In this document: piece after piece, positions 11,961-14,780 of the stretch
How positions within the stretch are numbered: the stretch's first letter is position 1
Layout: each line of letters opens with the position of its first letter
Sequence record: OK331996.1
Direction: 5' to 3' (one strand)
Origin: Escherichia phage vB_EcoM-G157lw
Length of the DNA stretch: 64,000 bases
The notes under the pieces: generated by a model
What the model saw: only the letters and a program-made list of their open reading frames with translations
What the model was told of the DNA's origin: nothing
Databases searched by the model: none
Made by a program: the position numbers and the translations under genes

Positions 11961-12569
11961 ATGAAAATGCAAAGTGATTTCAATTCAATGTTTGAAGAGT
12001 TCCAAAGACAGGTTGATGTTCCAGACCAATTATTAAATGCTCTTAAACGTATGGCAGAAGGACGTAATTATTATTGGGGTTCTTCATATGAAACTGTTGA
12101 AAATCTTTCTGGAAGATTTTCTAGAGGTAAAAAGTCTTTAATACGTCCTGGAATACTTATTAACAGTATTGAATCAATTCATTTATTAACATGCGATTTT
12201 GACGTTGAATTTACTGATTTTGTTTCTCCTGAATGGACGGTCTGTTATTTAAACGACGATTATGATTATCTTGGCGTTTATAGTTTAAGTGATGCATGGT
12301 TTAAACGTAATTTACAAAAGTCAAATTTATTCTATATTGATACTACTGTAAAATTTCAGGGCAAGAAATATTTCTTTACTCTTATAGTTGACTCTGAAAC
12401 AAAATATGAAAATAAACGTATTCTTAGTAAAAAGAATATCTTAACTATTGTCGATGATCTTTTTGATAAATTCGTAGAAAATCCCAATTTTGAAAGCGAT
12501 TTATTATTAGAAAAATTTGTTAAGGAATGTAGAGAATATGTCAAAACCATCACTATACCTTCCAAGTAA
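11961..12569 (+). CDS. hypothetical protein, 202 aa, C-terminal FVKECR motif; first member of paralog array
   Basis: Track ORF; 3-prime end carries the conserved junction. Confidence 0.6.
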   Translation: MKMQSDFNSMFEEFQRQVDVPDQLLNALKRMAEGRNYYWGSSYETVENLSGRFSRGKKSLIRPGILINSIESIHLLTCDFDVEFTDFVSPEWTVCYLNDDYDYLGVYSLSDAWFKRNLQKSNLFYIDTTVKFQGKKYFFTLIVDSETKYENKRILSKKNILTIVDDLFDKFVENPNFESDLLLEKFVKECREYVKTITIPSK

Positions 12570-12930
12570 ACCGTTGAAGTATGAATTAAAGCGTCAGATA
12601 ATTTCTACTGATGTGTTAATAGGTCCTGTGGTAGTTGTATCATTTGTGATTCTGGTGATTGCTGGAATGGTTATAGACGTTATGACTGATATTGAATCTG
12701 GTGCAATATTTGGAGCAACACTAATTCTTCCGTTGGTAGTTCCGCTTTTATTAGTACCTATAAATTGGATAGGATATTGGTATCAAGGAAGACACTATCG
12801 TAAACGTGTACGTGATTGGAAAGCTCAGTGTAAAAAGATTAAAAAGGAACATCAGCTTAAACTTGCTGCGCATGAATTTGATGAAATTATGAAATTTGTT
12901 AAGGAATCACGATGCAAAAGCCAAAACTAA
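12538..12930 (+). CDS. small membrane protein (two TM), 130 aa, C-terminal FVKESRCK
   Basis: ATG 12538 placed after the AAGGAA embedded in the upstream gene end. Confidence 0.55.
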   Translation: MSKPSLYLPSKPLKYELKRQIISTDVLIGPVVVVSFVILVIAGMVIDVMTDIESGAIFGATLILPLVVPLLLVPINWIGYWYQGRHYRKRVRDWKAQCKKIKKEHQLKLAAHEFDEIMKFVKESRCKSQN

Positions 12931-13286
12931 ATAAAGTCAAATATTCTCTTCCTGAGTCATTTTTAATTTTTACTGTAGCGTTGGCTGCATCTCTTGCGGG
13001 TAGTCTTTTTGGATTGTTAATTGACTGTCTTATTTTAAACATCCGTAGTAACGTCAGCGGTATAATAGATATAATAGAAGTTTGGAGTGAACTTCATTAT
13101 ACTATAGCGATTTCATTATTTTCATTCTTTGGTACAATGTTATATTTTCATTATGATAATTTTAAAATAAATTGGCAAAGAAAAAAAGATTACAAAATAC
13201 AATTAAAGGAATATAATAGCTACATGTCTTATATTGAAAAAGAATCAATGGAAGAGTTTGTGAGTGATTGTAGGAAAATTAAATGA
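12912..13286 (+). CDS. small membrane protein (two TM), 124 aa, C-terminal FVSDCRKIK
   Basis: Track ORF; start embedded in the RC codons of the upstream gene. Confidence 0.6.
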   Translation: MQKPKLNKVKYSLPESFLIFTVALAASLAGSLFGLLIDCLILNIRSNVSGIIDIIEVWSELHYTIAISLFSFFGTMLYFHYDNFKINWQRKKDYKIQLKEYNSYMSYIEKESMEEFVSDCRKIK

Positions 13287-13767
13287 TTTTAAAAACTCGC
13301 TGGTATGATTTAGATGATGGGGATGATGGCATTTCAGTTGATAGAGTTGACTGGAATGGTTGTTCCGAAGATATGAAAAATTTGTTGATTAGGGAGTTTA
13401 GAATGGGATATCAAGCAGCTAAGCCATCTATTATAACAGATGATAAATTCGTGTGTATTCATAATGGTCGCGCTAAGTTAACGAACGCTGATTGGTTCAC
13501 AGATAAAATTATGATTCTGTGGTATATTATTAGTCTTCCTGTGACATCATTCGTATTTTACTTTTTTATAAAAAATCCAATGGACAGAATAGGAGATTGG
13601 ATTCTTTTAACCATACTTGTTAATATTTTTACTGCAGCAATATTATCTGGGATATGGTGCGTGTTCATTGAAATGCCATGGCGGCTACGCAGACAGCAAA
13701 AGATTTTTGATGAAAAGAAATACACTCAAAATTTAAATAACTTTATCACTGAATGCAGGAAATTAAA

Positions 13768-13771
<4 letters not shown>
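13283..13771 (+). CDS. small membrane protein (two TM), 162 aa, C-terminal FITECRKLK
   Basis: ATGA overlap with the upstream gene; track ORF. Confidence 0.6.

Positions 13772-14780
<1,009 letters not shown>

Follow-up and report, generated by a model that had tools for sequence, protein, structure and literature searches.

A C-terminal peptide shared by the adjacent early genes e.5 to e.2 of a Tequatrovirus, and the Shine-Dalgarno sequences laid over its codons

Why should four adjacent phage genes carry nearly the same short peptide at their ends, and why should the ribosome-binding site (RBS) of each following gene lie within the codons for that peptide? These questions are raised by the genes e.5, e.4, e.3, and e.2 of Escherichia phage vB_EcoM-G157lw, which precede the Nudix hydrolase gene nudE in the 64,000-nucleotide (nt) stretch of sequence record OK331996.1 analyzed here (hereafter, the window). 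A megablast comparison identified the window as Tequatrovirus DNA 99% identical to phages wV7 and RB51, and T4 gene names were transferred to it from the RB51 annotation. We consider it probable that the set comprises diverged tandem paralogues together with an unrelated e.5, that the shared tail is a C-terminal cap maintained by selection, that Shine-Dalgarno (SD) sequences are overlaid on its codons, and that the repeated tail DNA recombines. The genes e.5 to e.2 are known T4 early genes; what is new is the detail of the shared tail and the SD overlay, a modest addition and not a new kind of system.

The tails read FVKECR in e.5, FVKESR in e.4, FVSDCR in e.3, and FITECR in e.2, and are located at or near the C-termini (Table 1). 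A scan of the six-frame translation of the window with the pattern F[VI]x[ED][CS]R returned five matches, four of which were these tails, and a scan of the rest of the T4 genome (106 kb) added none, giving five in about 340,000 codons overall; the occurrence of the motif at four adjacent gene ends is far from chance. The original prediction, made from the letters of the window alone, had held that the four genes end at the motif across near-identical junctions. The motif was indeed present in all four, but e.5 runs on for 11 codons (EYVKTITIPSK) and e.4 for five. Likewise, the junction DNA was alike within two pairs, the e.5/e.4 and e.4/e.3 junctions sharing the exact 16-mer AAATTTGTTAAGGAAT and the e.3/e.2 and e.2/nudE junctions aligning over about 64 columns (empirical p = 3e-3), whereas comparisons across the pairs (e.5/e.4 or e.4/e.3 with e.3/e.2 or e.2/nudE) were non-significant.

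The peptide was found to be retained well beyond the window. In tblastn searches, orthologues of e.5, e.4, and e.3 were confined to Tequatrovirus and Mosigvirus, while e.2 additionally occurred in Dhakavirus, and the orthologues in Mosigvirus, Dhakavirus, and metagenomes (27-50% identical) retained F-[IV]-x-x-C-R. The RB69 tails are FIMECREYV (e.5), FVKEIRCK (e.4), FIKECRK-stop (e.3), and FITECRNLR-stop (e.2), and Dhakavirus e.2 ends in FIEECRK-stop or FIKECRK-stop. An exhaustive HMMER search with e.2 yielded only 14 relatives among 1.8 billion representatives, and the distant full-length relatives (29-36% identical) end in FIKECRK, FIEECRK, FIKMCRNS, FIKGCRK, FIKGCRNGHN, or FITECRNLR. In an alignment of 11 e.2 sequences (27-98% identity), F154, I155, C158, and R159 were among only 16 invariant columns. 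Word-indexed protein searches added little depth, as nearly all matches were close Tequatrovirus relatives (with one 48% identical Mosigvirus e.5), and IMG/VR scans returned few loci. Homologues elsewhere thus keep the tail, and the motif noticed in the original prediction is real and conserved.

The codons behind these residues are by no means fixed. Across five gene families from Tequatro-, Mosig-, and Dhakavirus, Phe was encoded by TTT or TTC, the following Val or Ile by GTT, GTG, ATT, or ATC, Cys by TGT or TGC, and Arg by AGA, AGG, CGA, or CGT; the retention of Arg across both of its codon families requires selection on the amino acid. When the RNA folding of the four junctions was compared with that of shuffled sequences, no excess structure was detected (z = +0.85, +1.56, +0.03, and -0.55), and an Rfam search of the junctions gave nothing below E = 0.5 and nothing close to a gathering score. 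Since the codons vary, the junction RNA is unstructured, and Rfam is empty, F-[IV]-x-x-C-R is best regarded as a protein-level motif.

As for the proteins that bear the tail, three had been predicted to possess two transmembrane (TM) segments. Two hydrophobic segments were clear in e.4 and e.2, while the second segment of e.3 was weak (Kyte-Doolittle 1.5) but aligned with TM2 of its relatives; hydropathy revealed no TM segment in e.5. From hydropathy and charge distribution, e.4, e.3, and e.2 are predicted to adopt an N-in/C-in topology, which would place their tails in the cytoplasm. In an AlphaFold2 (AF2) model of e.2 (predicted local distance difference test, pLDDT, 69), TM2 and the tail formed one continuous helix spanning residues 103-160. 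When the tails were aligned on Phe, hydrophobic residues fell at -3, 0, +1, and +4 (the last being Cys) on one helix face flanked by Glu, Arg, and Lys, a pattern that would fit a helical interaction surface. In addition, e.2 has gained a soluble N-terminal domain, characterized by W-x-x-[LI]-D-D-G-D-E-G-I ... V-D-W-x-x-C.

Pairwise BLAST similarity between the members in the window was weak, and their kinship was assessed by hhalign comparison of profiles that combined orthologues of Tequatro-, Mosig-, and Dhakavirus, with reversed-sequence decoys as controls. Scanning all fetched loci for tails identified a fifth tail-bearing gene in Mosigvirus, RB69ORF133c (locus L003, 5509-5814; also in loci L021, L022, L023, and L024), which encodes 101 amino acids (aa) with two TM segments and ends in NFIKECRGK-stop. 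With the first profiles, the match between e.3 and e.2 (P = 3e-5) was confined to the last 27 residues. When the e.3 profile was enlarged with two e.3-like sequences from the metagenome contig L037 described below, it matched the C-terminal half of e.2 over 77 columns covering TM1, TM2, the helix, and the tail (P = 1.2e-7, probability 94%; decoy 3.6e-3), and RB69ORF133c over 89 columns (P = 1.9e-5). RB69ORF133c in turn matched e.3 with P = 1.8e-5 and the C-terminal half of e.2 with P = 3.4e-7. The e.4 and e.3 profiles, both shallow, were colinear over 112-117 columns (P = 6.4e-5, probability 64%; decoys 1e-3 or worse), and both proteins begin with M-x-K-P-x-L, the M-S-K-P start of e.4 being conserved in Mosigvirus. 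For e.5, only 9-13 tail columns aligned with the other members (P = 2e-4 to 5e-3), and no similarity was found beyond the tail. Judged by these profiles, e.3, RB69ORF133c, and the two-TM module of e.2 go back to a common ancestor, as e.4 probably does, while e.5 appears unrelated to the others apart from its tail.

Direct evidence of tandem duplication in the family was provided by contig L037 (SRR8048112_18403, 1926 nt), which derives from a divergent T4-like phage and carries an ORF133c-like gene, two e.3-like genes, an e.2-like gene, and then a Nudix gene, with the consecutive tails FVKECRGQ, FIREVRNAKTR, FIDDCKNWR, and FIKMCRNS. The adjacent e.3-like genes (126 and 120 aa) each have their own tail, are 34% identical over 125 aa (E = 4e-19), match e.3 of the window with E = 2e-7 and 2e-5, and on this similarity unmistakably look like tandem duplicates. 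The serial duplication of a gene-plus-junction unit proposed at the outset is therefore well supported for e.3, the C-terminal half of e.2, and RB69ORF133c, and moderately for e.4, but it does not extend to e.5, which shares the tail only. In RB69-like phages, we also observed that e.3 is closely followed by a further run of small consecutive genes (RB69ORF139c/138c, 137c, and 136c; L003, 3357-4152, and L021, 3357-4151) with another C-terminal motif (GAWVSSPALC-stop, GGWVASSHTC-stop, and QGWVSSSYSC-stop), each followed by taaGGAA, and this run may represent another tandem family with a conserved tail ending in Cys.

Gene content among the relatives points to recombination at the tails. Phage T2 is devoid of e.2, its e.3 being directly followed by nudE, and the left part of this junction corresponds to the e.3/e.2 junction and the right part to the e.2/nudE junction, with an in-frame switch inside TGCAGGAAA, which comprises the Cys-Arg-Lys codons including the SD and is common to the e.3 and e.2 tails. 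Because the crossover falls inside TGCAGGAAA, T2 e.3 ends in the CRKLK of e.2. Of the 60 records with the best scores, 51 had a contiguous e.3-nudE junction of the T2 type; among the Tequatrovirus records, e.3 was found in 498 and e.2 in 447, and the deficit of 51 equals the number of T2-type junctions. As e.2 is a close neighbour of nudE in each of the three genera, its absence in T2-type phages reflects loss rather than insertion elsewhere. An unequal exchange of this sort would also yield, as its reciprocal product, a tandem duplication like that in contig L037. The tails are favoured crossover sites. Phages of the vB_EcoM-UFV05 group (OP555981.1; locus L031, 3001-3321) contain a natural in-frame e.4::e.2 fusion of 106 aa from which e.3 has been removed. 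Furthermore, e.2, which is intact (162 aa) in the window and most Tequatrovirus records, is interrupted by a frameshift in T4 itself: a truncated 102-aa open reading frame (ORF) is annotated in the T4 reference (L008, 3001-3489), and in locus L005 (2860-3347) the remainder forms a 63-aa ORF that lies in a different frame. Two further candidates were set aside. P0120, an 83-aa protein in which the e.2 tail follows a foreign N-terminus, had been considered as evidence of tail capture, but on its 524-nt metagenome scaffold (L030) the sequence identity shifts on either side of a T4-like segment of 115 nt, and the scaffold is likely an assembly chimera. BEU50 (L028, UNVERIFIED_ORG), in which e.5 is fused to an ORF132c-like end, is probably another and was not used.

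Such exchanges invite the alternative that the tail itself is the mobile unit, i.e., that about 10 codons together with the SD and start codon constitute a small junction cassette that passes from one gene to its neighbours by recombination or gene conversion until unrelated genes share it, and for which the peptide needs no function. This would account for the 9-13 residues that e.5 has in common with the others, the e.2-type CRKLK end of T2 e.3, the exact 16-mer common to the e.5 and e.4 tails, and the fact that Tequatrovirus e.3 has a long AGG-type tail like that of e.2 while Mosigvirus e.3 has the short type. The membrane members, in contrast, are similar far past the tail, over 77-89 columns, and from genus to genus the peptide has survived synonymous as well as two-step codon changes, which would not be expected of a neutral passenger. 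We therefore regard capture of the tail as an unlikely explanation, albeit the most serious competitor of descent by tandem duplication with selection on the cap.

The relation between the peptide and the RBS was then resolved at the codon level. The next gene's SD had been predicted to lie within each tail, 5-10 nt before the ATG, and this was confirmed at all four junctions. The SDs are not spelled by E-C-R-K as had been supposed; instead, AAGGAA is provided by the Lys-Glu codons in e.5 and e.4 and AGGAAA by the Arg-Lys codons in e.3 and e.2. The statement that the motif doubles as an RBS accordingly holds insofar as the SD is within the tail codons, but these differ from member to member, and the invariant F, I/V, C, and R are outside the SD. 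When the duplex energies were calculated as predicted pairing with the anti-SD at the 3' end of 16S rRNA, all junctions, including those of the other genera, gave -3.3 to -6.2 kcal/mol at 5-10 nt spacing. In the short tails ECRK-stop (Mosigvirus e.3 and Dhakavirus e.2), the SD (A/G)AGGAA occupies the K/E-E codons 8 nt 5' of the ATG, and Arg is encoded by AGA or CGT. In the long tails CRK[IL]K-stop and CRNLR-stop (Tequatrovirus e.3 and e.2; Mosigvirus e.2), the SD is AGG-AAx, 5-6 nt 5' of the ATG, and position 3 of the motif is Ser, Thr, or Ile, whose codons are non-SD codons. The SD is embedded in the CGA-GGA (Arg-Gly) codons of the RB69ORF133c tail FIKECRGK-stop, and in the TGG-AGG (Trp-Arg) codons of the e.3-like tail FIDDCKNWR-stop of contig L037. 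Four placements can thus be distinguished, namely K/E-E, (A/G)AGGAA; R-K/N, AGGAA; R-G, CGAGGA; and W-R, TGGAGG. The e.2-like tail FIKMCRNS-stop of the same contig is retained although its SD, TAGGAAAA, starts in the stop codon and lies mostly downstream of it. The SD is laid over the tail opportunistically, and tail length and codon choice co-vary as a rule of compensation. Cleavage by RegB was considered and is presumably inapplicable, because the junction SDs lack GGAG.

The same comparison bears on the start of nudE. The start at 13768, where nudE had been placed in the original prediction, is preceded by AGGAA at a spacing of 6 nt in the duplex scan, whereas the alternative start of the T4 reference record at 13753, located 15 nt upstream and giving a 151-aa protein beginning with MQEIKMKT, has no SD. 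The results thus favour the 146-aa start for the annotation of nudE.

It might still be argued that the motif is a convergent by-product of RNA constraints, namely the SD, its spacer, and the overlapping start and stop codons, with no selection on the protein. Lys-Glu, Glu-Glu, and Arg-Lys codons do spell an SD, the final codon must end in A for ATGA to form, and in the ...SRCK end of e.4 the Cys codon TGC would be forced by the overlapping ATG of e.3 (cgA TGc), as the reading frames indicate. Nevertheless, F, I/V, C, and R fall outside the SD and remain constant while their codons vary, so that the codon usage largely refutes this explanation; moreover, the SD takes four different positions relative to the motif, the motif persists in contig L037 with the SD mostly past the stop codon, and the junction RNA is neither more structured than its shuffles nor matched in Rfam. 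We consider such a by-product very improbable. That short C-terminal peptides of a genome rich in AT merely resemble one another by chance, a reading to which the motif's length of only six residues might lend some colour, is excluded by the concentration of its matches at the ends of four adjacent genes and by its retention in the orthologues.

The arrangement and expression of the genes are relevant to how they may act together. The five early cistrons e.5-e.4-e.3-e.2-nudE have no intergenic DNA and overlap successively by 32, 19, 4, and 4 nt. ATGA stop/start overlaps occur only at e.3/e.2 (13283-13286) and e.2/nudE (13768-13771); these two junctions show a 4-nt stop/start overlap of the kind associated with termination-reinitiation, while e.5/e.4 and e.4/e.3 do not. 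The overlaps of 32 and 19 nt make simple stop-codon reinitiation inapplicable at the latter. Judging from the overlaps, translational coupling is plausible. The T4 orthologues are 75-95% identical at the protein level, with tblastn against NC_000866 giving 75-93%, and share the gene order and orientation (e.6, e.5 to e.2, nudE, e); this full-length similarity and the synteny from e.6 to nudE and e place the genes in the T4 e.5/e.4/e.3/e.2 orthologous groups. PHROGs 2607, 2604, 2330, and 2203, each of unknown function, matched the four proteins one each (1e-62 to 1e-108). In T4, early RNA has been recorded for all five genes from e.5 to nudE, and the proteins have been classed as early (e.5 and e.4), middle (e.2 and nudE), or late (e.3) (supplement, PMC9697503). 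These RNA and protein data indicate that the five are real, expressed genes.

Taken together, the following mechanism is proposed. The e.4, e.3, and e.2 C-terminal-half proteins and RB69ORF133c of RB69-like phages would be diverged tandem paralogues, each a small inner-membrane protein with two TM helices in N-in/C-in orientation and a basic cytoplasmic helix after TM2. This helix would end in an amphipathic cap, hydrophobic-x-x-F-[IV]-x-[ED]-C-R-[KN], of which the soluble e.5 would carry the cap only. Selection on the peptide would maintain the cap; because the next cistron starts at the cap, the SD would be written into whichever of its codons happen to sit 5-10 nt before the ATG, and the tail would adjust to this placement in its length, in the residue that fills motif position 3, and in its choice of Arg codon. 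The repeated tail DNA would in turn offer short homology for unequal recombination, by which whole genes could be removed or duplicated in frame without damage to the motif, the SD, or the following gene's start. The cap may serve as a common docking or assembly element by which the co-expressed proteins bind each other or one partner, and translation of each cistron may be partly coupled to that of the preceding one. It is conceivable, if rather doubtful, that the cap (hydrophobic-x-x-F-[IV]-x-E-C-R) docks e.5, e.4, e.3, and e.2 (and ORF133c) into an early inner-membrane complex or onto a common host target, with its DNA acting as an in-frame recombination boundary. If so, subunits could be added, dropped, or swapped without breaking the translation chain, a coding-sequence analogue of the promoter-early stem-loop (PeSL) cassettes discussed below.

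Several observations weigh against parts of this account. The comparison of e.4 with the enlarged e.3 profile gave only P = 1e-3, the profiles being shallow (effective number of sequences, Neff, about 1.5), and that of e.4 with e.2 was no better than decoys. The UFV05-type crossover maps to a 7-nt microhomology, TCCTGTG, inside TM1 of e.4 and e.2 and not to the tails, which are therefore not the sole crossover sites. Being frameshifted in T4 and deleted in T2-type phages, e.2 is dispensable. Lastly, the differing T4 protein classes (PMC9697503) disfavour a tight stoichiometric relation or strict coupling.

The features of the locus are summarized in Table 1. The chain is bounded upstream by a GC hairpin between e.6 and e.5, 3' of which no T-run was present on the + strand. 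Two TATAAATA boxes (14213-14236), which we take to be the T4 late-promoter consensus, closely precede the strong SD, TAGGAGGTA, that serves the lysozyme gene e. As nucleotide-acting NudE ends the same gene chain, we also record that the top 11 PDB matches of e.5 in Foldseek (12 of the top 13) were small alarmone synthetases (RelP/RelQ), with E values of 5e-3 at best. These were treated as noise given a poor AF2 model (pLDDT 56), TM-scores of about 0.15, and a root-mean-square deviation of 15 A; a profile search of PDB sequences with e.5 returned nothing, and no functional inference is drawn.

Table 1. Coordinates of genes, tails, SD sequences, and other features of the e.5 to e region, numbered from the first nucleotide of the window.
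Feature	Position	Strand	Details
e.5 coding sequence (CDS)	11961-12569	+	202 aa, soluble; RB51 annotation, 99% identity, PHROG 2607
e.4 CDS	12538-12930	+	130 aa, two TM segments, N-in/C-in predicted from charge distribution
e.3 CDS	12912-13286	+	124 aa, two TM segments, second weak
e.2 CDS	13283-13771	+	162 aa; soluble N-terminal domain plus two-TM-and-tail module homologous to e.3
nudE CDS (Nudix hydrolase)	13768-14208	+	Pfam NUDIX 8.5e-14; RB51 annotation; final cistron of overlapping chain
Lysozyme gene e	14246-14740		RB51 annotation
e.5 tail FVKECR	12516-12533	+	Contains e.4 SD AAGGAA
e.4 tail FVKESR(CK)	12895-12912	+	Contains e.3 SD AAGGAA
e.3 tail FVSDCRKIK-stop	13257-13286	+	Contains e.2 SD AGGAAA; ATGA overlap
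e.2 tail FITECRKLK-stop	13742-13771	+	Contains nudE SD AGGAAA; ATGA overlap
Exact 16-nt direct repeat AAATTTGTTAAGGAAT	12513-12528; second copy 12892-12907	+	Empirical p = 2.5e-4
SD of e.4, AAGGAA	12522-12527	+	K-E codons of e.5; spacer 10 nt; -6.1 kcal/mol
SD of e.3, AAGGAA	12901-12906	+	K-E codons of e.4; spacer 5 nt; -6.1 kcal/mol
SD of e.2, AGGAAA	13272-13277	+	R-K codons of e.3; spacer 5 nt; -4.2 kcal/mol
SD of nudE, AGGAAA	13757-13762	+	R-K codons of e.2; spacer 5 nt; -4.3 kcal/mol
GC hairpin GGGGCUUCGGCCCC, UUCG loop	11925-11940	+	Between e.6 and e.5; upstream boundary of uninterrupted chain

The locus resembles several known systems without coinciding with any of them. Overlapping co-directional genes can be coupled by termination-reinitiation at ATGA/TGATG pairs, which often encode subunits of one complex (PMC6728339, PMC10666635, PMC12548453). 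The e.3/e.2 and e.2/nudE junctions are of this kind, having ATGA overlaps and an SD that lies within the preceding ORF, 5 nt from the start codon, whereas e.5/e.4 and e.4/e.3 differ in the length of their overlaps, and the SD here is set in a conserved peptide motif within which it is mobile. PeSL cassettes, i.e., intergenic repeats of an early promoter and a stem-loop, mediate modular shuffling in T4-type phages (PMC2839356, PMC4122927). As with these cassettes, short repeats at gene boundaries provide homology by which accessory genes of a hyperplastic region can be precisely gained or lost; in contrast, the repeats described here are tails of coding sequence that include an SD and a start codon, and the products remain in frame within one translation chain. 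No intergenic DNA, promoter, or terminator-like hairpin was found at the four junctions, the sole hairpin being the one upstream of e.5. Paralogous duplications of adjacent genes have been described in T4-like phages for alt/alt.-1/alt.-2 and motB/RB69ORF010c (PMC1524935), and in these as in the present case an accessory gene was duplicated in tandem beside its parent, after which the copies diverged. Unlike them, the present family has three to five members, an extra N-terminal domain in e.2, and an unrelated e.5 that shares the tail only. A Pfam-A search gave nothing usable for e.5, e.4, e.3, or e.2, and newer Pfam families hold e.5, e.4, and e.2 separate (Phage_T4_Y06P, Y06O, and Y06M). Databases thus keep the T4 e.5-e.2 families apart; the shared tail and the kinship of e.3, e.2, and ORF133c were absent from the annotations and literature searched, and literature searches on e.2-e.5 turned up no statement on function or paralogy.

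Although nothing in these findings alters the understanding of phage biology, they give four uncharacterised early genes of T4, together with relatives from at least three genera, a concrete and testable feature, namely four invariant residues at the tip of a predicted cytoplasmic helix, and the database families of e.3, the C-terminal half of e.2, and RB69ORF133c could be linked accordingly. The tails also represent a natural case in which a peptide motif and an RBS are written on the same bases, the conflict being solved by movement of the SD among neighbouring codons. Finally, the loss of e.2 in T2-type phages illustrates how short coding repeats permit the precise deletion of a gene from a chain of overlapping cistrons without polarity.

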